32,000 bases of DNA from Desulfocapsa sulfexigens DSM 10523 (GTDB lineage: Bacteria > Desulfobacterota > Desulfobulbia > Desulfobulbales > Desulfocapsaceae). The DNA lies in the NCBI RefSeq assembly GCF_000341395.1, contig NC_020305.1:4752-36751 (forward strand). The letters run 5' to 3'. The notes beneath the pieces were generated by a model, which saw only the letters and a list, made by a program, of their open reading frames with translations, was not told the DNA's origin and searched no databases. The translations under genes were made by a program, and so were the position numbers. This document shows positions 6,124-32,000 of this stretch, in pieces (within the stretch, counting starts at the first letter, position 1; each line of letters starts with the position of its first letter).

Positions 6124-6756
6124 ATGATAGTGGCAATAGTTAACCAAAAAGGCGGCACGGGCAAAACCACGATAGCCGTCAACCTCGCTTTTGGAACCGC
6201 TAACGCAAAATATCCTACCGCCCTGGTCGATGCCGATACCCAGGCAACCTGTCTCCATTTTTATGGTAACCAGGACATAGAAAACCTTACCGTCTGTTCT
6301 GCCGGTGATGATGTCCGGGAAACGGTGCAACAGTTGAGCAAGGATCACCGCTTTGTTTTTATAGACACAGCCCCTCACGATAACGATTCCATGTACCTTG
6401 CCATGGTCACTGCTGATCTGATAATCATCCCCACCAGACCACGGCCCTTTGATCTTCACTCCTCGGAAAAGGTAGTGGAGATGCTCCGGAGTATCGAGAA
6501 CGAGTATGGCTACACGCCCTGCTATTTCCTCCTCAATCAAGTAAAACACGGTACCATTCTCGGCAGGGAAACCCTGGATTATATCCAGCACAACTTTGAA
6601 CTGCCTGTCCTGAAAACCCAGATCCATGATTATGAGATTTACGGACAGGCGCCATTATCCGGACAATCCGTATTCCTCTACGCACCCAAGCATAAAGCAG
6701 CTCAAGAGTTGAGAAACCTGCTGCGAGAGATGAACAAAATATACAAATCTCAATAA
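6124..6756 (+). CDS. parA: ParA/ParF-type (small, type Ib) partition ATPase
   Basis: Deviant Walker A VNQKGGTGKTT, 210 aa, followed by a small ribbon-helix-helix gene. Confidence 0.9.
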   Translation: MIVAIVNQKGGTGKTTIAVNLAFGTANAKYPTALVDADTQATCLHFYGNQDIENLTVCSAGDDVRETVQQLSKDHRFVFIDTAPHDNDSMYLAMVTADLIIIPTRPRPFDLHSSEKVVEMLRSIENEYGYTPCYFLLNQVKHGTILGRETLDYIQHNFELPVLKTQIHDYEIYGQAPLSGQSVFLYAPKHKAAQELRNLLREMNKIYKSQ

Positions 6757-7350: not shown

Positions 7351-10035
7351 TTACGACTCGTTCGTATCGTGTGCAGGTTTAAGATTAAACCTGCCATGAT
7401 CGTGTTTGTAACACACTATTTCAGCACGTAATTGATCACCCGCATCAAACTCTTCAAGTAATAACGCGCCAGCATCTTTAAGTTTATTAAATTCAGAAAT
7501 GTGTATCAAGCCAGTGCCTTCAATACCAAATTCAACGAACAGGCCGTATTTCTTTATCCCTGTTACCTGGCAGTCAACTACTCTACCAGGAGGATATTTT
7601 TTTTGTAATGTTTCCGTATCAGAAGTACTACTTGCCTTCTCTTTTAGTTTTTGGACATATTCTTTTGGTTCTGTAATATTGCAAAAATCATGAATTCTCT
7701 CTTCTGCTAATATAGCTTCAGGGTTTGCCAGATAACTATCTTTATATTCTTCTAAGTAAGATAGCAAAACTGAGGCATTATCAACTGATGAAGAGTATGA
7801 CATGTGTCCTTTACCTTTACTCCCAATTAATCTATCTGCTATATCTTCCGCAATGCGTGCATCTTTAAACCATACATCTTCAGAACACGTTGAAAGGTAA
7901 TCTAAATTTATGAGTAAATCCAGATGGACATGTCCAGATGGAGCAATTGAAATAAGGTCATCAATTGAAAATTGATTGATGTTTTGAGACTCAGTTGATA
8001 TACATCCCGCCTTGATTAGTTCAGATATTTCATCAGATAACCTTCTTTCGTCATGCCCATATGCTACTAGTTCATTAATGATTGTCGCGGTTTTATGATA
8101 CCCAAGCATCCCGCTTGGACCTTTAGTTCGATATTTTTTCTTTAACCAAGATAAAACTGACAACCTCGCAAAAGGATCTGGTATTATATCTTCTGGAAAA
8201 GATGCAAAAATATTTTTAACGAGGCTGTTAGCATCATTGTAGTACCTTCTGTTCCCGCGAAAAAGAACCCTGGTAACGATATGCTTTGGTAAAACATAAT
8301 CACCCTTTGCATGCCTTATTTTAAATATCTGGTCTTCATGAATGTGTCCACTTTTGCAAAAATCAAGAAAAATTTCCAACCCTTTTCTGATATTTGACCC
8401 AGCAATTCCTGAAACTATTCGCCTAAAAAGTGCATCATTTTGGAATAGTGAACGCAAAATACAAGCTAAATAATATGCTTGTTCAGATTGTGGATATTCA
8501 ACTCGAAATCCATTTGGAAGAACATAGGACAATGAATTCTCTTTCTCCGTATCCATTTCAGCGAGAGCAAGTTTGACTCTCTTGTAAAGAACATCCATGA
8601 ATAGTGGCGCATCAATTCGGAAGACTAAATCTTTGATGACTGTATCTAGTGGTGGTTCTGTTCTGTGGTGATCATATGTGGTGTCACGGATAGGTAGAAA
8701 TACTAGACATCTACATGTTTTTTGGAGCCATTTCGCTACATCAAACATTAGCAATTGGTCGTCTCGATTCCGTTTGTCACTATTATCAAGTGACACAATT
8801 AATAACTTTTGTCTCTCAGCACAAAAATGGCGAATACATGCATTCATAGTTGCATCTGTATCACCTTGCACTCTGATCAACTCATCCGCCAAAAGGCTTT
8901 TATATTTGTCTGAATACTCGTCAAAATAGGCCCCAGCACCTTTTTTAATTTTATTAAGCTCAACACTATATAATTTTTCTAAAAAAGGTAGACTGTCGAA
9001 ATCAATATCAGCGTTATGGTTCCTGAATTCATTAATTATCTCATTCTCCAACCAAGAATAAATCACCCCTCTTGAAAGAGGTGCCAGATTCATATTAATG
9101 GATATCCACACAGTTGATTCTTTAATTTCTTCAGGTAAGGAGACTTCCCTTAGATAATCAATGAATGTTGATTTTCCGCTCCCAACACCTCCAATAAGAA
9201 CTAATAATTGGTGGTGAAGTTTGTCGTTTGGTGTAAGAGTTCTCAACAGTTCACTTGGGTCTGTCGTTGAAATTTGATGAGCATCTGTGATACTTGGCGG
9301 ATTTGCTGCGCGGATTATTTTGTCAATCGGATCTACATGTCTGAGGCGCCTTGTTGATTTTACATAAGCTTTCTTAACAATGTTTTTTCTTTCCTCCTCT
9401 GATTCAGGGTTGAACAAATGCCGATACTCAAGTGCCAAAGTATTACCAAACGAATTTAGCTTCACTTCCTCATTTCTTACTGATCGTCCTCCTATAATGT
9501 TTGTAGGTCTCTTAAATTGAACATTGCCTCTCAATTTTTTTTGTTCTACATCAGAGAATTTTTCTAAATTTACCTTACAACCAAATGTAATCAATTTTGC
9601 GAGATTTGGATGAGATGCGTCTATTTCAGTATTAGAAATTTCTAGTAATATTGAACTGTCATCCCATGAGCCACAAATTGTACGTAATGAATTCGTTGCG
9701 ATTAATTTCTGACAAGGATTAAAATGAGAAGGAAAAAGTGAATTTATTTCACCTGCATATAGCCTTGCTTCACGAATAGCCTCTTCAAGGTTGTTATCCT
9801 CTGGATGTTTTGCTTCAATTACAAGAACAGGAAGGCCGTGTAAGATAACTATATAGTCCGGATAGTATAGTTTTTTTGCCCTTCCCTTGTCTATTTCAAG
9901 CTGCCTAATATCTGGCTTGGTTCTAAAGTCGCATGAAGAGTATCCTAACCCAACAGGTTGACTATTAGTAAGTAGTGGAAGAATGAACTTCTGCTCGACA
10001 TCGCTTTCATTCTTTATATCTTTCTCAGAAATCAT
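7351..10035 (-). CDS. 894-aa multidomain protein: N-terminal PD-(D/E)xK nuclease (HsdR-N-like), central P-loop NTPase (STAND/NACHT-like), helical region, C-terminal S1 OB-fold
   Basis: YYPDYIVILHGLPVLVIEAK gives D60 and E74-x-K76. Walker A GGVGSGKST at aa 282-290. Walker B-like LLIVSLDNSD at aa 411-420. S1 signature GRVVDCQVTGIKKYGLFVEFGIEGTGLIHISEF...GDQLRAEIVCYKHDHGRFNL at the C-terminus. AT-rich and monocistronic. Confidence 0.9.
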   Translation of the reverse strand: MISEKDIKNESDVEQKFILPLLTNSQPVGLGYSSCDFRTKPDIRQLEIDKGRAKKLYYPDYIVILHGLPVLVIEAKHPEDNNLEEAIREARLYAGEINSLFPSHFNPCQKLIATNSLRTICGSWDDSSILLEISNTEIDASHPNLAKLITFGCKVNLEKFSDVEQKKLRGNVQFKRPTNIIGGRSVRNEEVKLNSFGNTLALEYRHLFNPESEEERKNIVKKAYVKSTRRLRHVDPIDKIIRAANPPSITDAHQISTTDPSELLRTLTPNDKLHHQLLVLIGGVGSGKSTFIDYLREVSLPEEIKESTVWISINMNLAPLSRGVIYSWLENEIINEFRNHNADIDFDSLPFLEKLYSVELNKIKKGAGAYFDEYSDKYKSLLADELIRVQGDTDATMNACIRHFCAERQKLLIVSLDNSDKRNRDDQLLMFDVAKWLQKTCRCLVFLPIRDTTYDHHRTEPPLDTVIKDLVFRIDAPLFMDVLYKRVKLALAEMDTEKENSLSYVLPNGFRVEYPQSEQAYYLACILRSLFQNDALFRRIVSGIAGSNIRKGLEIFLDFCKSGHIHEDQIFKIRHAKGDYVLPKHIVTRVLFRGNRRYYNDANSLVKNIFASFPEDIIPDPFARLSVLSWLKKKYRTKGPSGMLGYHKTATIINELVAYGHDERRLSDEISELIKAGCISTESQNINQFSIDDLISIAPSGHVHLDLLINLDYLSTCSEDVWFKDARIAEDIADRLIGSKGKGHMSYSSSVDNASVLLSYLEEYKDSYLANPEAILAEERIHDFCNITEPKEYVQKLKEKASSTSDTETLQKKYPPGRVVDCQVTGIKKYGLFVEFGIEGTGLIHISEFNKLKDAGALLLEEFDAGDQLRAEIVCYKHDHGRFNLKPAHDTNES

Positions 10036-10258: not shown

Positions 10259-11554
10259 TTAAACATCCTCCCCCAGCCGCTCCCCAATAAAAACAGCTAA
10301 CATCCCCTCAACCATTCCAGGGGTCACCCCTGCCTCATCATATCGTTTCAGCACAATCGTGTTGCCGGTCGCCACTAGGTTCTCGCGGAATTCAGCCAAA
10401 AAAGCTTCTCTCTCCCCTTCCCCCATGGATTCATACCGTGACATGGCAAGTTCCTGTTTCTGCCTTTTTTCGGCTTCCTGGCCATCTTCCTGCTGTTTTT
10501 TAGCTATCCTCTCCTGGATAACAGCTTTTTGCTGTACTTCATACTCCACTTCAATAATTGATTCCTGCGGCTTCCATCCCTCTTCAATGGCCTTCCTGGC
10601 AATGCCTCCGACACTCTCCACCTTCTGGCCGCGCTTTCGCACCTTGTTTATATATTCTCTTGCCATCTGCAAGGCCGCCTTAATGTGATCATGGCCGTAC
10701 TCTTCCACCAGCTCCTGTGCTTTTTTCTCGGGAGAAATACCGAACTCCATGATCAGAATATCTTCCATGGAGGTCTGCCCTCCCCTGTCACTTATTCCTG
10801 GAAGCTCCATCTGCTGATAGCGTTTATTTTTGCTCCAGGTAAACTCAATCTCCTGTACCTTCCGTCCCTTCTTGATCTGGATAAAATCAAATTGAACATC
10901 GGTCTTGGCGGCTATATCCTTTTTGGCTGGCAACAGAACTTTTGATTTAAAATGACCAAACAGCCGGTATGTTCCTTCGGGAATGGCCAGATATTCACGG
11001 AGCCAGGAAAGCTCAACTCTTGCAGATTTGCGGTGATCCACATTGGCAAGCCCCTGGTTGTACTTGATGAACTGATAAATTCGCAGGGAGTAGTGATTTC
11101 TTAGACGAATGACCGCCCTTGCTTCTCCAAGGGTGGTGAAATTACCTTTCAGGGCAAGAAGAAACGGTTTGAGGGTCGGGTCAAAGCGTAATTCAACACA
11201 CCCTTTCCCTGGGATAATAGAGGCGGAAGAGCACCAGGTGGTTTTGTCGATCCGGCCATCTGCCTTTTCATCCGGATTGATCCAGCGAATAACCTTCTTC
11301 AGCAGCCCTTCTGTGGCCTCATCAAAACGAGCATAGAGATCATTGCGGCTGCCCCCCATGATATTGCAGAGTTCCCTGATGGATATCCGGTAGGGCTTGA
11401 AATCCTTATCACCTCGTTGGATCAGCGACAGCATATAGAGCACCAACCGCTGTTCGTTAATCTTCAATTGCGGCCATTGTGCTTCTATGAGCAGATCATT
11501 AGAGGCAGCTATCAGACCACCGCCCTCTTCCTTTTTGATCACCTCGTCAGTCAA
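10259..11554 (-). CDS. Plasmid replication initiator, Rep_3/RepB family
   Basis: N-terminal NDLLIEAQWPQLKINEQRLVLYMLSLIQ pattern typical of Rep_3 initiators. TTG start per the ORF track. Iterons lie immediately upstream. Confidence 0.85.
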   Translation of the reverse strand: MTDEVIKKEEGGGLIAASNDLLIEAQWPQLKINEQRLVLYMLSLIQRGDKDFKPYRISIRELCNIMGGSRNDLYARFDEATEGLLKKVIRWINPDEKADGRIDKTTWCSSASIIPGKGCVELRFDPTLKPFLLALKGNFTTLGEARAVIRLRNHYSLRIYQFIKYNQGLANVDHRKSARVELSWLREYLAIPEGTYRLFGHFKSKVLLPAKKDIAAKTDVQFDFIQIKKGRKVQEIEFTWSKNKRYQQMELPGISDRGGQTSMEDILIMEFGISPEKKAQELVEEYGHDHIKAALQMAREYINKVRKRGQKVESVGGIARKAIEEGWKPQESIIEVEYEVQQKAVIQERIAKKQQEDGQEAEKRQKQELAMSRYESMGEGEREAFLAEFRENLVATGNTIVLKRYDEAGVTPGMVEGMLAVFIGERLGEDV

Positions 11555-11635: not shown

Positions 11636-11967
11636 GAAAATAGTGATAGTTAGTTTCTGCACATCCGAGAATGGTGATAGTTAAGAAAGAATCAGGGAGT
11701 AATTACCCTCCAATCATTACGCTAATGGGCACATCCGAGAATGGTGATAGTTCATCCGAATTCGGTGATAGTTGAGAAAGAGTAAAGCAAACAATGCCCC
11801 TGTAACCCTTACTGGCAAGTACTTTACTGCCTATGTGTTCTCAATATCCATTCCCCCGAGAATAGTGATAGTTCATCCGAGAATGGTGATAATAACTCCG
11901 AGTTTAGTGATAGTTCATCCGAGTTTGGTGATAGTTAGTCCGAGAATGGTGATAGTTTGAGCAAAAT
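11636..11967. repeat. Iteron array (oriV): about nine copies of TCCGAGAATGGTGATAGTT
   Basis: Copies at 11636-11651 (partial), 11664-11682, 11734-11752 and 11755-11773. Five tandem copies with 21-bp phasing follow at 11865-11883, 11886-11904, 11907-11925, 11928-11946 and 11949-11967. Confidence 0.9.
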
Positions 11968-20529: not shown

Positions 20530-20654
20530 TCTTCGCCCCCTTGGGAGAAAGGGTTATTGAAATGATCTTTTTTCAGGGAGAAAAGGGCGAAGCTGTTAAG
20601 AGGGCCAGGGTGTATGCTCCGGCTGGTAATTTTAAGATAGTGGAGAGATGAGGT

Positions 20655-20927
20655 ATGACAAAGAAGGAACTTGTTGAAGAAGTGGCAAAAGATGCGAAAA
20701 TCAGCCAGGCGGCAGCATTGCTGGCGGTTGATTCCATGACCAGGAATATAATGAAGGGATTGAAAAAGGGAGATCATGTTTCCTTGGTTGGTTTTGGCCG
20801 GTTTTCGGTGAAAGAGCGAGCGGCCAGGAAGGGGAGGAATCCGCAGACTGGTAAAGAAATCCAGATCCAAGCCCGAAAGGTTGTTAGGTTTACACCTGGT
20901 CAGCCATTGAAAGATGCCGTTAATTAA
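20655..20927 (+). CDS. hup: HU-family nucleoid-associated DNA-binding protein
   Basis: MTKKELVEEVA...GDHVSLVGFGRFSVKERAARKGRNPQTGKEIQIQARKVVRFTPGQPLKDAV is a canonical HU/IHF signature. 90 aa. Confidence 0.95.
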   Translation: MTKKELVEEVAKDAKISQAAALLAVDSMTRNIMKGLKKGDHVSLVGFGRFSVKERAARKGRNPQTGKEIQIQARKVVRFTPGQPLKDAVN

Positions 20928-20941
20928 AAGAGGCTAAGGCT

Positions 20942-21229
20942 ATGTGTAGAGGAGATGTTGAGATATCATGTAATGACTATGACGAGTTGTTGAAGTGGGC
21001 AACGAAGTGGAATAAAGACCTTGCACAGAGCATTGAGCAAATCAGAATTGTAAAAAATAATAAAGAGGGGCACAAAACTGTTTTTCTTAGAAAAGAGGAC
21101 ATTACCAAGGAAGAAGCTGAAGCGTTTCTTGAATCACTGATGGAATCAGAGATATACGCCTATGATGAGAAAAGCTTAAAATACTTTTCTCATCTTGTTG
21201 AGGCATGGCGGCCTCTCGCTGAAGAATAA
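20942..21229 (+). CDS. Hypothetical acidic protein
   Basis: 95 aa, with an RBS-like aagagg upstream. No recognisable motifs. Confidence 0.5.
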   Translation: MCRGDVEISCNDYDELLKWATKWNKDLAQSIEQIRIVKNNKEGHKTVFLRKEDITKEEAEAFLESLMESEIYAYDEKSLKYFSHLVEAWRPLAEE

Positions 21230-21276
21230 TTGGTGTGGATACGCTAGATTCCCTTTGAACCGCTGCTGATGGATAC

Positions 21277-21385
21277 AAACTTCCAGCTTCGACCATGTGC
21301 CCAGAAACGACATCTAGCCCAGATTCAGGTTAAAACTGTCACGGCTTTTACCACTTCCCGCTTTAGTTAGATAGAGTATCCGGGC
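21277..21385 (+). repeat. Short (~109 bp) copy of the GC-rich structured element
   Basis: It aligns in three blocks to 23851-23875, about 24066-24093 and about 24176-24240. For example, ggttaaaactgtcacggcttttaccacttcccgctt matches ggttaaaactgtcacggcttttgcatcttcccgctt. Confidence 0.8.
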
Positions 21386-21408
21386 AACAAACAAATATCA
21401 GTCTTGGT

Positions 21409-22017
21409 TCATTTATCTTTTTGGAATAATGCCATACCATCAGTACCTTTTGGTATGAATGCAACGTTTTCTGACAACTCTTCGTGCTCAATCTCAACTA
21501 CAGCTAAATAACCTGTATCCAATGTTAGCTTTTCCCAGACAGGAAAATATGGTGCTAATTCTGCGTAATTGCCAATTCTATCCGTAAGATATTGATACAT
21601 ATCCCTTGACGGTAGAATCAGAAGACCTCCTTCAAGAACATTTTCAAGTAGTCCAATGGCAAGCTTATTTACCGCCCTGTGGCTTGAAGAAATATTACCA
21701 GTTTCCCATTCTACAGCAAAATATTTACCGTTATTCAATTTAAGGACGGCATCAACCGGACCTGGTTTTATTCGAGCCCCAAGAGCCATCGGATGTTCTA
21801 ATATCCAACCCTGTTCTTCCAAGTGTATCATACAATTTGTTTTTATTGGCTTTACGCCATTTCCCTTTTTCACGGGATTCAGGGTGAATATGTCAGAATC
21901 GGGTGGCCATGAAACCTTTTTTATTGCATGATAAACATCGTGGAGCAGTGTTTCCAGCTCATCACTTTTTGGAAATGAACCCTTTGAAATTAAAACTTCA
22001 GTCCTCAATATTTTCAT
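21409..22017 (-). CDS. Type II restriction endonuclease, BamHI family
   Basis: Collinear motif matches to R.BamHI as I remember it: EWETGNISSSHRAVNKLAIGL (BamHI EFETGNISSAHRSMNKLLLGL), QYLTDRIGNYAELAPYF (YYLTDRVTNFEELEPYF) and FIPKGTDGM (LIPKGSDGM). Confidence 0.9.
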   Translation of the reverse strand: MKILRTEVLISKGSFPKSDELETLLHDVYHAIKKVSWPPDSDIFTLNPVKKGNGVKPIKTNCMIHLEEQGWILEHPMALGARIKPGPVDAVLKLNNGKYFAVEWETGNISSSHRAVNKLAIGLLENVLEGGLLILPSRDMYQYLTDRIGNYAELAPYFPVWEKLTLDTGYLAVVEIEHEELSENVAFIPKGTDGMALFQKDK

Positions 22018-22237
22018 CTAGAATATCCTTTACCTTTTTTATCATTATATGAGGTTGCTCGTTTAATGCTTCGGCAATCTGTAATATTGATGTAAGAGAT
22101 GGTTGCCTTAGTCCACGCTCAAGAAGTGAGATAAAAGTTCTGTCTAGGTTTCCCATCAAAGCTAGTTTTTCCTGTGAAATTCCACGTGCATTCCTGATTT
22201 CCTTGAGAACCTTTCCGTAAACTTCTTCTGGTTTCAT
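21998..22237 (-). CDS. Controller (C) protein of the R-M system, XRE-type HTH
   Basis: MKPEEVYGKVLKEIRNARGISQEKLALMGNLDRTFISLLERG. GGAGGG RBS 6 nt upstream of the ATG at 22237. Overlaps the start of the endonuclease gene, as in C-R operons. Confidence 0.85.
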   Translation of the reverse strand: MKPEEVYGKVLKEIRNARGISQEKLALMGNLDRTFISLLERGLRQPSLTSILQIAEALNEQPHIMIKKVKDILDENIED

Positions 22238-22278
22238 ATGAATCCCTCCAAATATAATATGGGCCAACTTACTCTCTT

Positions 22279-22306
22279 GACCGCACTTGGTCGACGGACT
22301 ATAGTC
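22279..22306 (-). promoter_or_regulatory. Candidate C-box operator
   Basis: GACTATAGTC (22297-22306) and GACCGCACTTGGTC (22279-22292) lie 42-70 nt upstream of the C gene. Read on the minus strand they give GACTATAGTCCGTCGACC..GGTC, resembling GACT..AGTC C-boxes. Confidence 0.6.
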
Positions 22307-22383
22307 TGCAAAGGTAAGGTTTGACTTTGTTTAACAAGTAGGGTTCAGTTGGAACAAATAAGAGAAATAACCAGGAAATTATA

Positions 22384-23637
22384 ATGAAAAGACAGAATGC
22401 ATTTTTTGAAGCACTTGGCGTTGATGCAACAAATAGTAAGGAGGTAACGCGACTTGCTGTAATTAGCGGCATTTCCGTTAAAAAACTTCGTTACTACAAT
22501 GAACATCACCTGATGCCCTCTGGCACTGAGTTGGAGAAGATCATAGAAACAACCAATGTAACTAAGTTGAAGCTTATGTTGAAACTTGGTTGTGTTGATC
22601 ATAATGTTGCAGGAATGCTAAGTGAACATGCTGATGAAATTATTACTCTTTTTGAAAAAGAGAAAAAACAAACAAAAGCCAAAAAAAGATTACAGCCTGT
22701 CTTTGAAACAAATCTAGGAAAGCTTTATCACGGTAATTGTATTGAAGTCCTGATGCAGATGCCAAGCAATAGCGTTGATATGGTCTTTGCAGATCCACCG
22801 TTTAATCTGAACAAATTGTATCCCTCTAACATAAATGATGACTTAAAGGCTGAACAGTATCTGGATTGGTGTGAAGATTGGATAGACGAATGTGTGAGGG
22901 TCCTAAAGTTTGGCGGAGCGTTTTTATTATGGAATTTGCCAAAATGGAATTCTGCTTTATCTAATTTTCTGAATGATAGATTAACTTTCAGGCATTGGAT
23001 TGCTACCGACATCAAATATAGATTACCGATTAAAGGTAGACTGTATCCTGCACACTATTCTTTGCTGTATTATATAAACGGAGACAAGCCTAAAACATTC
23101 CATCCTGATAGGTTGCCAATGCAGGTATGTCCAAAATGTAGTGGTGATCTGAAAGATTATGGTGGCTATAAAGCAAAAATGAATCCAGCTGGAGTTAATA
23201 TGTCTGATATCTGGATTGATATTCCACCAGTCCGTCATAATAAATATAAGCGTCGCGAGGGGGCCAACGAACTATCACTTAAACTGCTCGATAGAATAGT
23301 GGAAATGAGCACCGATGAGGGAGACATTGTCTTTGATCCTTTTGGTGGTTCAGGTACTACCTACATGGCCTCTGAATTGAAAAAACGTAAATGGATTGGG
23401 TGTGAAATCGGCCCAGTTGATGATATTGTTAACAGGTTTGACCACATCAACGAAGAGAGGGAAATTCTAAATAATTATCGTGATAATTTAAATAGTTTAT
23501 TTCCAAAGCAGATCTTAAAAAAAAGAGAAAAGGAAGGGCTATGGACCTGTGAATCTGTCAGAAGTAAAGCTGCATTAAAAATGTCTACAACTACCTACAC
23601 AGAAAACTCCATTCCCCAGCTTGCAAAGACCAAATGA
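22384..23637 (+). CDS. DNA methyltransferase (beta-class N4-cytosine/N6-adenine), cognate to the BamHI-like endonuclease
   Basis: Motif IV FADPPFN precedes motif I FDPFGGSGTT (beta-class order). 417 aa. Divergent from the C-R operon, as in the BamHI system. Confidence 0.9.
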   Translation: MKRQNAFFEALGVDATNSKEVTRLAVISGISVKKLRYYNEHHLMPSGTELEKIIETTNVTKLKLMLKLGCVDHNVAGMLSEHADEIITLFEKEKKQTKAKKRLQPVFETNLGKLYHGNCIEVLMQMPSNSVDMVFADPPFNLNKLYPSNINDDLKAEQYLDWCEDWIDECVRVLKFGGAFLLWNLPKWNSALSNFLNDRLTFRHWIATDIKYRLPIKGRLYPAHYSLLYYINGDKPKTFHPDRLPMQVCPKCSGDLKDYGGYKAKMNPAGVNMSDIWIDIPPVRHNKYKRREGANELSLKLLDRIVEMSTDEGDIVFDPFGGSGTTYMASELKKRKWIGCEIGPVDDIVNRFDHINEEREILNNYRDNLNSLFPKQILKKREKEGLWTCESVRSKAALKMSTTTYTENSIPQLAKTK

Positions 23638-23850
23638 TTACAGGTTATACACAATCCGAGGTACGGAAAGTCCCCCCCGCACCCGCTCCGGCACGTCCTT
23701 TGCGTTTGTCTGCCCCGGTCGGCTGCAGCCCGGCAAACTGCCGCCGGTCTTCCGCTGCGCCCAGCTCAGCCAGCAAAGGCCCCGCCTCCACTCCTTCCGT
23801 GCAGGCTGCAGCGCTCCAGCTCCGCTTCAAGCCGGATCCCCGGTATCCCC

Positions 23851-24364
23851 AAGTTTCCAGCTTCGGCAGTGCACCTGGCAAAACAACACGCCAGGAGCCC
23901 TGCCTCTGTGCGTTCTGGTGGTAGACTCACCACCTGCTTAGTGTGGTGTCCACCGGCACATATTTTATAGCAGGCACAAAAAAATACTGCGCCCGCTATA
24001 AAAATGTGCGGAGGCCACACCCGATCCCGATCCGTGGCAGATCCAGGATCCTTTCTCCGGCCACGCACCCAGAAACTACACCTGGGAGCCTGTCCGGTAC
24101 CGGCTTTGGTGAGTAAGCCCAAGTCCTGCCTAAAGTGGTGTCCACCGCAAAAGCGCGGAGGCCACACCTGACACGGATTCCGGTTAAAACTGTCACGGCT
24201 TTTGCATCTTCCCGCTTCAATTAAATGGAGTTTCAGGGGCAAAAGCTCACGCCAGTTTTACCGGTAAGTGTCCGCTTGCGCGAATCACAGTGGACGCGGG
24301 ATACTGCCCCGCTTATGCCCCGGCCCGGTAAGTCAGATATGGGCAGGCATTCCGGGCCGGGGTA
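23851..24364 (+). repeat. Long copy A of the GC-rich hairpin-dense non-coding element
   Basis: Reverse-complement match to 30411-30926 with about 10 substitutions and 1 indel over about 514 bp, aligned by hand block by block. Confidence 0.95.
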
Positions 24365-24430
24365 TCTTTGGCCTGCGGCGCATGATAGAGGATCACTCCG
24401 GCCAGCACCGCCCCAGCCACCCGCCAGCAC

Positions 24431-24553
24431 AACCCCAAAACACAAACCGCCATAGCCCACCTGGTGCTGCAATGCAAGGTCGGTTGTCCAGTAGGGCACT
24501 CCACCTTGCATTGCAGCACCAGGCAGGCTTAAAGACATGGCGGTTTTGGGGTT
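24431..24553. repeat. Long palindrome: perfect 21-bp inverted repeat nested in a second, imperfect one
   Basis: cctggtgctgcaatgcaaggt (24460-24480) pairs with accttgcattgcagcaccagg (24503-24523). The outer arms are aaccccaaaacacaaaccgccat and atggcggttttggggtt. Confidence 0.9.
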
Positions 24554-24736
24554 GCACTGTCGGGTTTGGCTTAGGGGCTCTTGCTTCTCCCGGCCTCCGT
24601 TCTGAAAGTTTGGCGTTGCACGCTCTGAAAAAGACAGATACCTCCGGTGGGGGGTTCCCTCTCAGGTTTGGCCAAAGTCCGTGCCAGTTCCGCCTGTCCC
24701 AGGGTATGTTTTTACTGTTTAGTACGCACTGTTTCC

Positions 24737-24764
24737 TTGCAATATGCGCCCTGTTTGGTATAAT
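24737..24764 (+). promoter_or_regulatory. Near-consensus sigma-70 promoter with extended -10
   Basis: TTGCAA (24737-24742), a 16-nt spacer, then TGgTATAAT (TATAAT at 24759-24764). No credible CDS lies downstream for about 440 nt. Confidence 0.55.
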
Positions 24765-24770
24765 TATGTA

Positions 24771-25070
24771 AGCTAAAATATTTATTATATCAGGTGGTTT
24801 TATGGTTTCTTTCCCCTCCCGCACTTTGGCGCGTTGCTGGGCTGTTGCCTGTGGTGTCCCGGTTGCAGAGGCTGGGGCCGTTGTCTCCGGTCGCCCTGGG
24901 GCCTGGTCCTCGGTTCCCGGCCCTGCCGTCCAGGTTTCCTGCATGTTTTGCCATCGTTTGGGGCGGTGCGGCGGTTCACCTGGCGGTACCGGTTGCCGTT
25001 TCAAGCCCTCCCGCTGGTGGCCGGATCCGCGCTCCGGGCTGCCGGTTCAGCTCTCTCTTTTTCAATAAAA
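24771..25070 (+). ncRNA. Candidate ~300-nt GC-rich, A-poor non-coding transcript
   Basis: It lies downstream of the promoter above. All three forward frames and one reverse frame are open, which is a compositional artefact. CCGGTT(G/C) motifs recur at about 24859, 24989 and 25041. It ends near ctctctttttc. No family assignment is possible by eye. Confidence 0.25.
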
Positions 25071-25175
25071 AAGTAACGAAAAGGTGTAAATAAACCTGTA
25101 CTTTGTGCGTCCTTTTATGTTAAAATTACATAAAGAGTAAGGGAAAGGCCCTTGCCACATATTTTTTTGTACAGA

Positions 25176-25196
25176 GTGCGTACATTTAGTACGCAC
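25176..25196. promoter_or_regulatory. Palindromic operator GTGCGTAC-N5-GTACGCAC
   Basis: Perfect 8-bp inverted repeat just upstream of the RBS of the gene at 25213. The 12-mer TTTAGTACGCAC recurs at 24718-24729, next to the -35 of the upstream promoter. Confidence 0.55.
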
Positions 25197-25212
25197 AGCA
25201 AAGGAGGTTTTT

Positions 25213-25515
25213 ATGAATATGGCACACGAAATTACTCCGGAACAAATCACCCCTCGCTTTATCGCCGCCCTGGTCAAATGGCAGAAGAAAGGCCGCAGAT
25301 CCGTAGACGTCAAGATCCCGCCTCTTTGGTTTGACGAGGAAGGGGCTGTTTGTACCGTCTGGTGCTACGACAGCGATTTAATGGAAGGTCGCTTTGTTAC
25401 AAAAATTTCCGAGATCCCCACTACAAAACAGCTTGCCGAATCAAAGCGCCTGGCAATCGAAAAAGAAAGGGCCGAATTGCGGCAGAGATTAGCAGAAATG
25501 GAGGGCGAAAAATGA
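25213..25515 (+). CDS. Hypothetical protein (first gene of the recombination module)
   Basis: 100 aa with a strong RBS AAGGAGG. Coiled-coil-like C-terminus. Confidence 0.6.
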   Translation: MNMAHEITPEQITPRFIAALVKWQKKGRRSVDVKIPPLWFDEEGAVCTVWCYDSDLMEGRFVTKISEIPTTKQLAESKRLAIEKERAELRQRLAEMEGEK

Positions 25516-26372
25516 AATTACCGATCATTCAATCACCCCAGCTCGTAAAGCAAACAGAAATAGCCCTGGCCTATGCCCTTTTTCAACGGGAAAGGCACGG
25601 TAAACGGCTGGAACAGGTTGTTTTAGCCCCTGAAAACAAGCGGGGATACCTTGGGGTGTCTTCAATTTCCACCCCGCCGTGTGTGCTGTATTACTCGCTG
25701 ACAAACGAGCCCAAGGAAGAAACGGATCTTCCTTCCCGCTTTGGATTTGATACCGGCCATATTTTAGAAGGATACGTTCTGGATCTGCTCCAGGCCGAGG
25801 AACGCCAGGGGGAATTATCCTGGCCGTATCTTCTCGCCCCTAGTGGGGTTATTAAGGGCCATTTTGATGGCAGGACGAAAAATCTTATGCAGGATGGGGC
25901 TTGTATTATCGAGGTGAAGGCCACCGGGGGGTATTCGTTCAACAAAAAAATAGAGGAAGGTGCAGACAACGGGCATATCGAACAGGCATTCGTTTACGCA
26001 GTCGGCAGCTCCTCCCCCTATTTCGTTATAATTTACTGCAATCGTGAAGCAAAGAAAAGCACTCCTTTTTATGCGGTGTTTGGTTTTCATATTCCGGACA
26101 TGATAGCGGCAAAAAAGGCGGTTCAGGATCTGTTCGCAGAAAGATTCGATCCCGTTTTGTTATCCCTGCACCATGAATTACGGCCGGATCAGCCGGAAAA
26201 ACCCCGTTGGGAGTTCGGCCCCAGGGGCTGGCGGTGCCGCCCCGATTCTTCGTACTTCACTAAAGGCGGGAAGGAAAATTTTACCGTTGGCTATTGCTCT
26301 TACCGGGGAACCTGTCCGGAAGGGCTGGCGTACCGCGAAATCGAAGAGGAAAGAAAGGTCGCAGCGGCATAA
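25512..26372 (+). CDS. PD-(D/E)xK exonuclease, RecB/Cas4-like, with C-terminal cysteines
   Basis: I prefer the ATG at 25512, which overlaps the upstream stop. HFDGR...IIEVKAT (D...ExK) and QAFVY (QxxxY). Cysteines at PPCVLYY, WRCRP and GYCSYRGTCP suggest an Fe-S cluster. Confidence 0.75.
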   Translation: MKLPIIQSPQLVKQTEIALAYALFQRERHGKRLEQVVLAPENKRGYLGVSSISTPPCVLYYSLTNEPKEETDLPSRFGFDTGHILEGYVLDLLQAEERQGELSWPYLLAPSGVIKGHFDGRTKNLMQDGACIIEVKATGGYSFNKKIEEGADNGHIEQAFVYAVGSSSPYFVIIYCNREAKKSTPFYAVFGFHIPDMIAAKKAVQDLFAERFDPVLLSLHHELRPDQPEKPRWEFGPRGWRCRPDSSYFTKGGKENFTVGYCSYRGTCPEGLAYREIEEERKVAAA

Positions 26373-27927: not shown

Positions 27928-28210
27928 AACGCGGCATGTTTTCTGTTGCTTACACCGGGCAGGGTATTCTCCTGCCCGGATAATCTGTTTCTGTTTAGGC
28001 GGCACTACTTATATTTAGGAATAAGGTAACATCTACATATCGCATTCCATGTTTCCTTGCCGTTGGATTCATTCTCAACAGTGTGATAAATATGCTTGTG
28101 TAACCATTTATTGCGCTTACACTGAATCGGCCACCGACTTTCTATTTTACCCTTCTTGATATATGTTATGATGGAAAATACTAAACAAATTATTGCATAG
28201 GAGATACATT

Positions 28211-28654
28211 ATGAAAAAGGTAATCTTCATAGTAAGTATATTGGCAATGCTTACGGTATCAGCAATAGCACGTACTTGGTATGATGAAGATGGTAATGTA
28301 ATTTCTGGTTCAATATCATCCGATGGCGTTTTCCTTACAGAGAAAGAAATTGCAGAAATTGAGGCAAAAGAAGCTGAAGCTCGAAGAAAACTGTCTGAAT
28401 CCACGGTTACTACCAAGAAGACTAAAGAAAGAAATTATACCTCTCCATCTTCTGGTAATTTCACTCGATCTTATAGTTCAGTAAAGGCTTGTTATGATAT
28501 AGCTGCTATGGCCCACCTGACTGCTATCAGGGATTCGTCTGTCAAAGAATCCAATTATGAGCATGGTGTGGCGACAATAGAGTTTAAAAGTGGTAGGATG
28601 GTTAACTATACTTGCCTTGACAATGTTCTCATGTTTACGGAAATACACAAATAA
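28211..28654 (+). CDS. Secreted hypothetical protein (AT-rich cargo)
   Basis: ATG at 28211 with an AGGAG RBS. Signal peptide MKKVIFIVSILAMLTVSAIA. Confidence 0.6.
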   Translation: MKKVIFIVSILAMLTVSAIARTWYDEDGNVISGSISSDGVFLTEKEIAEIEAKEAEARRKLSESTVTTKKTKERNYTSPSSGNFTRSYSSVKACYDIAAMAHLTAIRDSSVKESNYEHGVATIEFKSGRMVNYTCLDNVLMFTEIHK

Positions 28655-28911
28655 TTACAAAATCAATGGCTATTTAAATGCGGTTTCTCGGGAGTGAGCA
28701 CAATCCTGAGACAACCACCCAAAGTAGCACGATGTTATTGTAATGATTACCGGCCGTTTGAATAACCAGTGGAAATCTTATTGATTCCATCAAATTTTTA
28801 TATATTAACTTACTACCGTATCAACGAACCATCACTCAAGTTGAGTCTGCATTGAATTCCTGTCAGATGCCTTACTGGAGAGAGTAACACAAACGAAGGT
28901 TTACGTTACCA

Positions 28912-28942
28912 CCCGGCCCGGATCTCCGAGCCGGGCTTTTTT
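28912..28942 (+). terminator. Rho-independent terminator
   Basis: cccggcccgg / ccgagccggg stem with one mismatch and loop atct, followed by cTTTTTT. Confidence 0.65.
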
Positions 28943-29123
28943 AGCTGTTATTCGGTAACGAAACTCAGTAAAGTAATCTAAGTAATGTTTTGAACCAGTT
29001 TTACGGGTTGCGTTACCATTTTGAGCAGACATCGAGGGTGCCGCCGGTCAGATCCGGACAAAAAACCTTCTCCCGGGTTGTGCCGGCAGCTGTTATGGAT
29101 AAGTAAAGTTATGAGGTAACGAA

Positions 29124-29675
29124 ATGAAAATAGGATACGCCCGAGTGAGCACCGGGGATCAAAACCCTGAGCTGCAGATCGACGCATTAGAAAAAGCAGG
29201 CTGTGAAAAAATATACACCGACAAAATCAGTGGAGCCAAAACGGACAGGCCAAACCTGAAAGATGCCCTGGGATATGTGCGGAAGGGTGATTGTCTGGTT
29301 GTCTGGCGGCTGGATCGTTTGGGCCGGAGCCTGAAACATCTGATAGAGGTTGTGGAAGGGCTGGAAGCCCAGGGAACGGGGTTTATTTCTTTGCAGGAAG
29401 GATTTGACACTACTTCCAGCGGCGGCAAGCTGGTTTTCCAGATTTTTGGAGCGCTGGCCGAATTTGAACGAAACCTGATCCGGGAGCGGACAAAGGCCGG
29501 ACTGGAGGCAGCCAGGGCCAGGGGCAGGGTAGGAGGAAGAAAGGCCAAGCTGGACAGTGACCAGGTGGGCACACTCAAGGCCATGCACGAAAGCCGGAAG
29601 CATACCATCAAAGAGATATGCTCTGTTTTTGGAATCTCGAAGCCGACTTTTTACAGATATCTGGAGGCTGAGTAA
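29124..29675 (+). CDS. Small serine recombinase (resolvase/invertase family)
   Basis: MKIGYARVSTGDQNPELQ with the catalytic Ser, VVWRLDRLGRS, GALAEFERNLIRERT, and the C-terminal HTH IKEICSVFGISKPTFYRYL. 183 aa. Confidence 0.95.
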   Translation: MKIGYARVSTGDQNPELQIDALEKAGCEKIYTDKISGAKTDRPNLKDALGYVRKGDCLVVWRLDRLGRSLKHLIEVVEGLEAQGTGFISLQEGFDTTSSGGKLVFQIFGALAEFERNLIRERTKAGLEAARARGRVGGRKAKLDSDQVGTLKAMHESRKHTIKEICSVFGISKPTFYRYLEAE

Positions 29676-30013
29676 TGGAACTGACAGAAAAAGATGCAGC
29701 TATTGCCTATGCAAAGGCATGGAATGCACTGGATTGCAGTGATTTTCTCGAATTGCTGGCTGATGACTGCACCTACGAATCTCAATGGGTAACCAGCGCA
29801 CTGGAAGGTAAGGAGGCAATCTCAAAATATCTTACCGGAAAAATGAAAACGGTAAAAACCGGGGGAGGGGCAACTGTACGTGCGGAACATGCACTTACCA
29901 CTGTTCCCGCATTTTTAAGAGAGGAAGGTCGCGATTGTGTCGTGTTAACCCAATGTATTGAGAAAGAAGTACAGGTTGCCATTCTTTTCGAAGTTGCAGA
30001 TGGAAAAATCTAA
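29675..30013 (+). CDS. NTF2/SnoaL-like fold protein
   Basis: 112 aa. AIAYAKAWNALDCSDFLELLADDCTYES is a typical SnoaL-like N-terminus. The ATG overlaps the recombinase stop. Confidence 0.6.
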   Translation: MELTEKDAAIAYAKAWNALDCSDFLELLADDCTYESQWVTSALEGKEAISKYLTGKMKTVKTGGGATVRAEHALTTVPAFLREEGRDCVVLTQCIEKEVQVAILFEVADGKI

Positions 30014-30410: not shown

Positions 30411-30926
30411 TACCCCGGCCCGGAACACCTTGCCCAGATCTGACTTACCGGGCCGGGGCATAAGCGGGGCAGTATCCCGCGTCCACTGTGATTCGCGCAA
30501 GCGGACACTTACCGGTAAAACTGGCGTGAGCTTTTGCCCCTGAAACTCCATTTAATTGAAGCGGGAAGATGCAAAAGCCGTGACAGTTTTAACCGGAATC
30601 CGTGTCAGGTGTGGCCTCCGCGCTTTTGCGGTGGACACCACTTTAGGCAGGACTTGGGCTTACTCACCAAAGCCGGTACCGGACAGGCTCCCAGGTGTAG
30701 TTTCTGGGTGCGTGGCCGGAGAAAGGATCCTGGATCTGCCACGGATCGGGATCAGGTGTGGCCTCCGCACATTTTTATAGCGGGCGCAGTATTTTTTTGT
30801 GCCTGCTATAAAATATGTGCCGGTGGACACCACACTAAGCAGGTGGTGAATCTACAACCAGAGCGCACAGAGGCAGGGCTCCTGGCGTGTTGTTTTGCCA
30901 GGTGCACTGCCGAAGCTGGAAACCTT
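30411..30926 (-). repeat. Long copy B of the GC-rich hairpin-dense element (inverted relative to copy A)
   Basis: See copy A. Several 60-nt blocks are identical. The differences cluster in the terminal hairpin loop and near 30850-30870. Confidence 0.95.
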
Positions 30927-30929
30927 CAG

Positions 30930-31113
30930 GTAAGGGATCAACAAGAAGTTACGATCTTCGATCTGGCAATATTAACGTGTAAATGAGTATTGTGTTTGAA
31001 TGCATAAGCAGAAAGAAGAAAACAAGAAGAGACCTCCTGTGGTAGAATTAGCTTAGGAGCTGACCGTGACAGCATAAAGCCGCACAGAATCATTAGCCAC
31101 AAGGAGGTCTCTT
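30930..31113 (+). ncRNA. Candidate IS110 bridge RNA / structured 5-prime non-coding end
   Basis: A 15-bp stem with one bulge: agagacctcctgtgg (31028-31042) pairs with ccacaaggaggtctct (31097-31112). It encloses about 54 nt and sequesters the RBS. IS110-group elements are reported to encode the bridge RNA upstream of the recombinase. Confidence 0.4.
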
Positions 31114-32000
31114 ATGAACAGTATGCATTATATTGGATTTGACATCCACAAAAAGGTTATCAGTTTCTGTGAAAAGCGGATTGATGGAACTACTGTGGAT
31201 CAAGGAATGATTCGAGCCACGCGAGACAGTTTAACTGATTGGGTTGCAAAACGAGAAACCTCTTGGGTTGGTGCAATGGAAGCCACTCTGTTTACCGGGT
31301 GGATATACGATTACCTGCTACCATATGCCCAGGAACTAAAAGTTGCTCACCCTGAGATGCTCAAGGCAATAACAGCCGCCAAGAAAAAAAATGACGCGGC
31401 CGATGCGGAGAAGATCGCAGATTTGCTTCGCTGCAACCTCCTCCCTGAATGCTACATGGCCCCGGAGGAACATCGCAACCTACGTCGCATTCTCCGTTAC
31501 CGGAACCTTTTAGTCAGAGAAGCGGCAAAGATGAAGACCAAGACTGCCACCCTTTTGATGGAAGTGGGAGCGGAGTATAACAAACGACGCCTTCACGGGA
31601 GTAAATATTTTCAGGAACTGCTCAGTACCCTGGAATATGTACCCGAATCGGTACTCAACCTTCTACAGATGAGCCGAAGCAGCATGGAATTCTTTGACAG
31701 AATGCAGAAATCACTTATCAGTGCACTTGGCAATAATCCGCAGATCAGTCAACGAGTTGAGTTATTAAGGAGTATCCGGGGTATTGGTGAGGTAACAGCT
31801 CTTACCTGGGTGCTTGAAATCGGAGATGTTTATCGATTTGGCCGTATCAACCAGGCGGTCAGTTACTGTGGACTATGTAGCGCACAGAAAGAATCAGCAG
31901 GGAAAGAGATTCGAGGACCGCTATCCAAGAAACGGAATAAACATTTACAGACCGTACTGATTGAGGCTGCCAAACTGGCGCCGCACTGGAACCCTCAATT
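31114..32000 (+). CDS. IS110-family DEDD transposase/recombinase (3-prime truncated by the window edge)
   Basis: My own translation: MNSMHYIGFDIHKKVISF..AMEATLFTGW..KKKNDAADAEKIADLLR..LLRSIRGIGEVTALTWVLEIGDVYRF..SYCGLCSAQKESAGKEIRGPLSKKRNKHL. It is absent from the ORF track because there is no stop within the window. Confidence 0.9.
   Translation, partial: MNSMHYIGFDIHKKVISFCEKRIDGTTVDQGMIRATRDSLTDWVAKRETSWVGAMEATLFTGWIYDYLLPYAQELKVAHPEMLKAITAAKKKNDAADAEKIADLLRCNLLPECYMAPEEHRNLRRILRYRNLLVREAAKMKTKTATLLMEVGAEYNKRRLHGSKYFQELLSTLEYVPESVLNLLQMSRSSMEFFDRMQKSLISALGNNPQISQRVELLRSIRGIGEVTALTWVLEIGDVYRFGRINQAVSYCGLCSAQKESAGKEIRGPLSKKRNKHLQTVLIEAAKLAPHWNPQ

Follow-up and report, generated by a model that had tools for sequence, protein, structure and literature searches.

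A BamHI-family restriction-modification cassette among hairpin units of a Desulfocapsa plasmid: a probable chance insertion into a pre-existing array

Introduction

How does a restriction-modification (R-M) cassette come to lie between copies of the same repeated element, and can it be lost through them? The question is raised by a 32,000-nt stretch of DNA from Desulfocapsa sulfexigens DSM 10523 (contig NC_020305.1, positions 4,752 to 36,751), which was analysed as a whole and is called the window here. Judging by its gene content, the window covers the greater part of a ~37-kb plasmid of the Rep3/iteron type. A BamHI-like R-M cassette is present in it, with a short copy of a GC-rich element upstream and a long copy of that element downstream. 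A first-pass annotation had proposed that the cassette was inserted or captured by recombination at this repeat, and that it could be lost or exchanged again by repeat-mediated deletion. Such a claim, if true, would provide a simple and testable route for the gain and loss of a defence cassette.

A different account is favoured here. With moderate confidence, the cassette is regarded as AT-rich cargo that entered, by chance, an array of hairpin units already present in the plasmid. An R-M system between pre-existing repeats belongs to a category that has already been described and is an ordinary case for R-M biology. What is new is the hairpin unit, a conserved structured element that is absent from Rfam and occurs in a little-known plasmid family of the Desulfobulbales.

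The cassette

On its domain content, the cassette is a genuine unit of the BamHI/OkrAI family. It consists of a restriction endonuclease (R), a small helix-turn-helix (HTH) controller protein (C) and a DNA methyltransferase (M), as listed in Table 1. Residues 2-159 of R align to positions 1-157 of the 157 in the PF02923 model, that is, to the whole of it. Its homologues number 3302 and include OkrAI at 59% amino acid identity, while the nearest ones are 75-76% identical. The M-C-R arrangement recurs in the homologous cassettes: an equal 79-aa C gene is found at the equivalent position in L004, L007 and L009, and a 417-aa M homologue, likewise divergent, in L004 and L007. A promoter-like site for M, TTGACC-17-TATAGT, has 10 of 12 matches, and the two palindromes of the divergent control region overlap it. 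These palindromes resemble the C-boxes of C-protein operators, and we take them to be candidate operators. The window contains nine GGATCC sites, without obvious avoidance.

The earlier description of the cassette as BamHI-like and AT-rich was borne out. Its GC content is 0.37-0.39. At third codon positions (GC3), the value is 0.30-0.34 against 0.53-0.60 for the backbone genes, for which Rep, primase, YdjM, exonuclease and AAA_24 served as the reference; the cassette is, therefore, a foreign insertion. It is 2.2 kb in size, contains both R and M, and is below the limit of 20 kb set for R-M inserts with long target duplication (PMC2853133). When 20600-25200 was compared by blastn with the plasmids of PLSDB and the phages of GenBank, the M gene alone was matched.

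In the closest homologous cassettes (L004-L009), DNA similarity to the window is limited to 21418-23562, and these cassettes are located among unrelated phage-like or BrxR-linked genes. No conserved flanks past the cassette stop codons were found among them. L004, which has both flanks on its contig, shows neither the hairpin element nor flanking repeats. The L009 contig stops at the R stop codon, and thus the coverage there ends short of the R-side flank.

The short copy as half a hairpin unit

The short copy had been described as a 109-bp match to three blocks of long copy A in the same orientation. The orientation was confirmed, and one block is solid: 53 of the 63 positions (84.1%) agree between 21322-21384 and 24176-24238, with E = 3.5e-14 for a search of the whole window. 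This match ends 23 nt ahead of the R stop codon (21409), in agreement with the distance of about 24 bp given earlier. The other two blocks, however, are marginal. The second (21287-21315 against 24055-24083) is identical at 22 of 29 positions, a score reached by 8 of 1000 dinucleotide shuffles. The first (21281-21291 against 23855-23865) is an 11-mer that overlaps the second by 5 nt and is supported only by where it falls, 2 nt within the left boundary (23853) of the long repeat. The blocks are collinear, and the chain of two was reached by 17 of 1000 shuffles. This ambiguity is explained by the fact that the long copy opens with two paralogous modules (~23853 and ~24052), since the 5' part of the short copy resembles the starts of both. 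It is the ~40 nt ahead of the half-unit that resemble the start of these modules.

The solid 63-bp match corresponds to the 5' arm and loop of a hairpin unit at the core of the long copy (24176-24265). Against R1, a covariance model built from six such units, the core unit scores 66.2 bits, whereas the short copy scores 0 bits. The folding z-scores of the short copy are -0.5 and -0.1, compared with -4.8 for the long-copy core. In place of its 3' arm, there is AT-rich DNA that continues into the stop codon of R. With a GC of 0.486 (0.47-0.49 with its 5' flank), the short copy forms a backbone-like island between two AT-rich inserts.

The 63-bp block holds a family-wide motif, CTGTCACGGC..TT.C. 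The longest exact run that the short copy shares with the long-copy core is 22 bp, and the copies are 2.85 kb apart. Neither 185,579 species genomes nor IMG/VR contained an exact match to the 22-mer core (GGTTAAAACTGTCACGGCTTTT). A single metagenome match was rejected as chance, as it lies inside a coding gene with unrelated flanks.

The hairpin unit and its occurrence in related plasmids

The complete unit is ~90-115 nt long. A 5' arm (CTGTCACGGCCyTTGC) and a 3' arm (GCAArGGCCGCGCCAG) enclose a loop that varies in sequence and spans 30-190 nt, and the outer stem is variable as well. The arms can also be written as CTGTCACGGCC.TTGC and GCAA.GGCCGCGCCAG, and no R''/R' core (RYYYAAC / GTTRRRY) is present in them. 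The inner stem covaries (TTTT/AAAA, CCTT/AAGG, CCCT/AGGG), and the outer stems are wholly different in sequence and still complementary. Conserved T.C and A.C mismatches are found in the stem, along with G.U pairs on one strand only. R1 recovered units that were absent from its seed, namely in L090, in L095 and two in L099. In the ten best R1 matches, 90.8% of the cells are paired and 9 of the 17 pairs have changed on both sides. None of 500 shuffles reached this covariation score, and when the pairings were slid by 1-3 columns, the paired fraction dropped to 32-49%. Judged by this covariation, the unit is a conserved structured element of this plasmid family, undescribed so far. Rfam 15 gave no match across the whole window at the gathering threshold; with E-value thresholds, 21200-21450 and 23600-25250 returned only chance miRNA-type hairpin matches. 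Outside this plasmid family, no copies of the unit were found.

The relatives were reached through homologues of the exonuclease gene at 25512-26372. No close relatives were retrieved by tblastn of the backbone proteins against PLSDB, and protein-guided scans of IMG/VR were also empty. The unit is conserved in three related metagenomic plasmids, L090, L095 and L099, and was not detected by the R1 scan in L094 and L098, where backbone or module is present. The cargo beside the units differs between L095 and L099. The units of these two plasmids are ~110 nt long and very similar; they stand as GC islands (0.61-0.68) in AT-richer DNA and share an inner sub-hairpin, GCGGGAAAAAGACCTCCCGC.

The closest relative is L090 (GCA_027031405.1, contig JALVQT010000206.1). 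Its backbone genes follow the same order as in the window (primase, integrase, AAA_22, YdjM, HU), and it has neither R-M nor the small gene orf95 that follows HU in the window. Directly after its HU stop codon comes ~1 kb of GC-rich non-coding DNA with several units in direct orientation. The motif CTGTCACGGCnnTTGC occurs seven times at no more than two mismatches (~0 expected) in this post-HU DNA and in a second non-coding stretch near the primase. Window positions 24190-24983 are collinear with L090 7021-5516, which include a unit, both arms of a giant hairpin and a homologue of the small gene orf88; the architecture downstream of HU is, therefore, common to both plasmids. The arms of the giant hairpin match L090 6659-6600 (77%) and 6345-6305 (86%). 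The similarity between the DNA downstream of orf95 and that downstream of the L090 HU gene was not significant, as 683 of 1000 shuffles reached the score.

These observations bear directly on the earlier proposal. It had predicted a single intact copy of the element in a relative lacking the cassette. L090 instead has several direct units, none with cargo between them. Since L090, the only R-M-free relative found, has direct repeats at this locus, they are independent of the R-M cassette.

The right flank of the cassette

The true right-hand neighbour of the cassette is a diverged unit at 23674-23798. Its loop (23730-23748) matches that of the first post-HU unit of L090 at 18 of 19 positions (E 0.02), and this one 19-nt match is no more than suggestive of orthology. 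Long copy A begins 55 nt after this unit, 216 nt past the M stop codon, and its solid matching block lies 539 nt past that codon. The earlier statement that direct repeats flank the cassette thus holds in that the cassette lies between two copies of the element, but the downstream copy is at a distance and the short copy is broken. The unit at 23674-23798 had been missed in it, and the second long copy (B) is inverted. Read from left to right, the order in the window is HU, orf95, half-unit, R-C-M, unit, two hairpin modules, core unit, giant hairpin, promoter and orf88.

Long copy A consists of successive hairpins; its folding z-score is -7.2 for the plus strand and -6.7 for the minus strand, and it has internal repeats D10, I10 and I11. 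Two paralogous hairpins, GGTGTCCACCG ... GCGGAGGCCACACC, are seen within it at 23933-24031 and 24125-24178, and an AT-rich hairpin of 54 nt is nested in the loop of the former. Neither of the two is present in the short copy; they were either inserted into the long copies or deleted from the short one.

The giant hairpin that follows might serve as a single-strand promoter or priming signal, or form a cruciform. In L090, it is enlarged to ~410 nt (6263-6676). Just downstream of it in the window, a strong promoter-like site, TTGCAA-16-TATAAT, is found at 24737-24764, ahead of orf88. This 88-aa open reading frame (ORF; 24802-25068) has a coding strand nearly free of adenine (12 A in 256 nt), and a protein of its type would be composed almost wholly of F, L, S, C, W, P, R, V, A and G. 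Its protein is conserved with respect to L092 despite many nucleotide differences, which are seemingly synonymous. Much longer A-poor ORFs (up to ~590 nt) occupy the same position in L090 and L093. The possibility that 24805-25060 is a non-coding leader was rejected since the 88-aa translation is conserved in L092; the stretch is probably coding.

The 6-kb module and the plasmid backbone

Long copies A and B bracket a 6-kb module of orf88, a 100-aa gene, the exonuclease-like gene, AAA_24, DUF7673, a serine recombinase and SnoaL. The core unit of copy B (30511-30600, minus strand) also scores 66.2 bits against R1. Each of the two copies is a break point for the short-read contigs of sample SRR25712206. 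In L090, the module is oppositely oriented with respect to the backbone, and another inverted repeat (L090 1-99 against 5697-5795, 99%) encloses it. Inversion of the module by homologous recombination seems likely.

Several other origins of the A/B pair were considered and set aside. The two copies do not resemble a miniature inverted-repeat transposable element or other transposon, since their ends (TTTCCAGCTTCGG... and ...CCGGGCCGGGGTA) are not mutual inverted repeats and no target duplication is shared in their flanks. The insertion sequence (IS) of the IS110 family near copy B does not account for its outer boundary, as the left end of the IS (~30994) is ~70 nt beyond the repeat edge at 30923. 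An invertase role of the serine recombinase on A and B was also rejected, as the enzyme has its own conserved res-like site, and no crossover-like site is present in A or B. The only Hin/Gin-type crossover (..AAACC NN GGTTT..) in the window is at 28880-28905, upstream of the recombinase gene. The res-like site extends over 28880-29010 and is conserved in four plasmids; its parts are a dyad GTAACACAAACGAAGGTTTACGTTAC, a terminator-like hairpin and further subsites containing GTAAC/GTTAC. The recombinase itself is nearer to the Gin invertase (1.7e-50) than to the gamma-delta resolvase (~1e-30).

The 21-bp iterons that adjoin the Rep3-type initiator gene are likely to be the vegetative origin. 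Other backbone genes in the window encode ParA, a DnaG-type primase, an XerC/D-like tyrosine recombinase, an AAA_22 ATPase, a YdjM-like protein and HU, the HU gene being the final conserved backbone gene ahead of the non-coding hairpin region. Where the backbone is covered, namely in the window, L090, L094 and L095, the tyrosine recombinase belongs to it. The enzyme scores 42.6 bits against the integron-integrase model TIGR02249 (cut-off 265), and its best match, XerC at 95 bits, is below the cut-off of that model too. No relaxase or type IV secretion system (T4SS) genes were seen within the window.

The plasmid is, as its composition indicates, a mosaic that carries several foreign inserts in addition to the R-M cassette. 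The orphan orf95 has no Pfam or NCBIfam match and, among 5.8 billion proteins, matches itself alone. Its GC3 is 0.385 against 0.53-0.60 for the backbone genes, and it is probably a separate piece of foreign cargo. More AT-rich genes (GC3 0.28-0.35; backbone ~0.55) are present at 7351-10035, 28193-28654 and 29675-30013, one of which codes for an 894-aa protein with HSDR_N and S1 domains. For the IS110 transposase, one copy from a Desulfocapsa metagenome-assembled genome is 93% identical, and the remaining close relatives all come from Desulfobulbales, so that the host is probably a member of this order. The left end of this IS was placed by comparison with five related IS copies; a conserved stem, AGAGACCTCCTGTGG...CCACAAGGAGGTCTCT, spans the ribosome-binding site.

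Table 1. Features of the window, and of two related plasmids where stated
Feature	Position	Strand	Remarks
Short copy	21281-21385	+	Half hairpin unit: 5' arm CTGTCACGGCTTTTAC and loop; 3' arm lost
R, restriction endonuclease, BamHI/OkrAI family	21409-22017	minus	Pfam PF02923 BamHI, 1.7e-87
C, small HTH controller protein	21998-22240	minus	Pfam HTH_3, 2.6e-13; overlaps start of R
Divergent control region	22277-22306		Two palindromes, GACCGCACTTGGTC and GGACTATAGTC (22280-22306), read from sequence
M, DNA methyltransferase (N4/N6 class), 417 aa	22384-23637	plus	Pfam PF01555 N6_N4_Mtase, 2e-38
Diverged unit, c1-like	23674-23798	+	37 nt past M stop; R1 38.3 bits, E ~1e-7 (member of the R1 seed alignment, hence not an independent score)
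Long copy A, 512-nt composite	23853-24364	+	Two paralogous modules, core unit 24176-24265, two more hairpins
Giant near-perfect hairpin, 149 nt	24419-24565	+	After long copy A; minimum free energy -98.6 kcal/mol, z -11.6
Long copy B, inverted duplicate of A	30411-30923	-	98.4% identity to A over 513 nt
HU-family DNA-binding protein gene	20655-20927	+	Pfam Bac_DNA_binding, 1e-32
orf95, AT-rich orphan	20942-21229	+	Between HU and short copy
Rep3-type initiator gene	10259-11554	minus	Rep3_N, 3.5e-29
Iterons, 21 bp	11659-11960		CCGAGAATGGTGATAGTT-type, at least 7 copies; adjoin Rep3 initiator gene
IS110-family insertion sequence	30994-32000, continuing past window end		Transposase start 31114; DEDD_Tnp_IS110 and Transposase_20
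Units of L099	L099 1177-1291 and 2620-2728		Direct; bracket three small genes
Unit of L095	L095 4919-5032		Precedes BrnT-family toxin-antitoxin pair

How the cassette came to its place

The account that we consider fairly probable starts from the layout of this plasmid family, in which HU is followed by a GC-rich non-coding array of units and then by an outsized hairpin, with a promoter and a small A-poor gene behind it. Two AT-rich foreign pieces, orf95 and the compact, self-regulated R-C-M cassette, would have entered the first part of this array, and one unit would have been damaged on insertion. The cassette is now situated between the 5'-half unit on the left and the unit at 23674-23798 on the right, and the 512-nt long copy is an expanded composite around another unit. 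The flanking direct repeats would then be a by-product of landing in an array, and neither a target duplication nor the agent of capture. The insertion probably took place by illegitimate recombination; its mechanism and the order of the events are inferred. The part of the earlier proposal that stands is that the cassette was inserted from a foreign source. Capture at the repeat, on the other hand, is not supported by the array in L090, by the truncated left copy, by an identity of 84% with 22 bp of exact match or by the nearest cassette homologues, whose contexts are unrelated and, in L004, free of such repeats.

Ready loss of the cassette through the repeats is not supported either. Deletion by this route would be rare, because the exact run is 22 bp within 63 bp at 84%, one of the copies is broken, and 2.85 kb lie between them. 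In E. coli, the minimal efficient segment for RecA-dependent exchange is ~23-27 bp, and 22 bp is at or below it. Post-segregational killing by the R-M system would oppose the deletion further.

Certain observations weigh against a chance insertion. No close relative with an empty site was found in the collections searched, so the pre-insertion state is reconstructed, with L090 backbone DNA being only ~66% identical. The short copy is nearer to the long-copy core (84%, loop included) than the L090 units are to each other. This points to a duplication of later date as the source of the short copy, one that could have been tied to the insertion. Its missing 3' arm is not present at the right junction, and a clean insertion into one unit is, therefore, insufficient as an explanation. 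The orthology of the unit at 23674-23798 with the first L090 unit is based on a single 19-nt match (E 0.02). Moreover, the covariation alignment was fitted to R1 and comprises 9 distinct sequences from four plasmids only.

The most defensible form of the earlier idea is that a block of orf95, the unit fragment and R-M was swapped in from another family member by homologous recombination in the array, with crossovers in the conserved backbone or the units, and could be removed likewise. The short copy with its 5' flank is indeed a backbone-like GC island (0.47-0.49) between AT-rich inserts, units conserved across the family could supply the homology, and the unit-adjacent cargo varies between L095 and L099. 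Nevertheless, units of different plasmids share only ~20-nt arms, too short and diverged for efficient exchange, the left copy is truncated, and no donor or alternative allele was found in the collections searched; the exchange is considered unlikely. The units have also been weighed as folded-strand recombination sites for the XerC/D-like recombinase, comparable to attC or the attP of CTX phage, with orf95 and R-M as site-specific cassettes. A cassette-like order is visible, in which orf95 is followed by the half-unit and R-M by a unit 37 nt on. Two direct units surround a three-gene block in L099, the stem is backed by covariation with its T.C/A.C mismatches and one-strand G.U pairs, and the backbones of the window, L090, L094 and L095 all keep the tyrosine recombinase gene. 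Yet the L090 units stand side by side without cargo, L094 has the recombinase and no detectable unit, and the recombinase reaches 42.6 bits against an integron-integrase cut-off of 265. There is no conserved crossover core at the cassette edges, a half-unit is not an expected product, and R-M has its own divergent promoters. Such a use of the units is quite unlikely.

A long target duplication, as modelled by the Kobayashi laboratory, would mean that R-M entered a single unit, with ~60-100 bp duplicated and the copies diverging later. The repeats are direct and the left one ends 23 nt from the R stop codon, and R-M insertions with target duplications of more than 30 bp have been documented in several phyla (PMC2853133). 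In the documented cases, the repeats are near-identical, for example, 44/46, and abut the insert on both sides (PMC2853133). Here, the identity is 84%, the right match is 539 nt from M with a unit and two hairpin modules between, and the left copy is without its 3' arm. Also, L090 has several units and not one, which is a weak test at ~66% DNA identity. This origin is very unlikely. Finally, the short match might be chance similarity or the conserved 3' untranslated region (UTR) of the cassette, the latter having been named in the first-pass annotation as grounds for giving up its reading. Two of the three blocks are statistically marginal, as noted. For the 63-bp core, chance is refuted by an E-value of 3.5e-14 and the family-wide motif, and the UTR was ruled out because the homologous cassettes share no similarity past the R stop codon. 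For the match as a whole, this explanation is extremely improbable.

Against these alternatives, chance insertion into the array remains the favoured reading. Foreign cargo accumulates beside the units, and in this plasmid a 98%-identical inverted pair of 512 bp brackets a 6-kb recombination module. Should the units have a function, whether in recombination, in priming or as RNAs, the shuffling of accessory genes in these plasmids would become easier to understand. By analogy with attC and Xer sites, the unit might even be a strand-specific folded element at which accessory cargo docks or preferentially recombines, with a sequence unlike theirs and perhaps a different recombinase. The cargo would then be R-M and orf95 here, and the toxin-antitoxin and small-gene blocks in the relatives. 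We regard such a role as distinctly doubtful.

Comparison with known systems

The cassette agrees with BamHI/OkrAI systems that have a C protein in its match to the full BamHI model, its 59% identity to OkrAI, its N4/N6-class M, and its HTH-type C gene, which overlaps the R start and is divergent from M. It differs in that the nearest R homologues are only 75-76% identical and belong to unrelated metagenomic contexts. The enzymatic activity and the GGATCC specificity are predicted here.

The hairpin unit can be compared with the repetitive extragenic palindromes and mosaic elements (REP/BIME) and with the single-strand initiation (ssi) or leading-region hairpins of plasmids. All of them are GC-rich, intergenic, multi-copy hairpins found in both orientations. 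The likeness extends to the DnaG-type primase encoded by the plasmid and to ArdC in the adjacent module of the relatives. As differences, copies of the unit were found in this plasmid family only, and no relaxase or T4SS was seen in the window.

With integron attC sites, the unit shares imperfect inverted repeats, a structure kept over sequence, a variable centre and conserved mismatches. It also shares the direct orientation beside variable cargo and a nearby gene for an XerC/D-like tyrosine recombinase. The differences are the missing R''/R' (GTTRRRY) core, a recombinase that fails the IntI model, units placed back to back without cargo, and cargo with its own promoters. The comparison is thus one of resemblance only.

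For the cassette and its repeats together, the closest comparison is with the R-M complexes of Furuta, Abe and Kobayashi (2010), who distinguished three classes of repeats flanking R-M systems: site-specific recombination, long target duplication and chance insertion between repeats (PMC2853133). As in those complexes, a compact, low-GC R-M system lies between direct repeats of more than 30 bp, with no transposase inside (PMC2853133). In contrast to the target-duplication class, the repeats here are unequal, 84% identical and asymmetric, and they are part of an array that a relative has without R-M. Further units are located at 23674-23798, 24176-24265 and 30511-30600, and also at the R-M-free loci of L090, L095 and L099. 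As the repeats are unequal and the multi-copy array exists without R-M, it is the third class, chance insertion, that fits.

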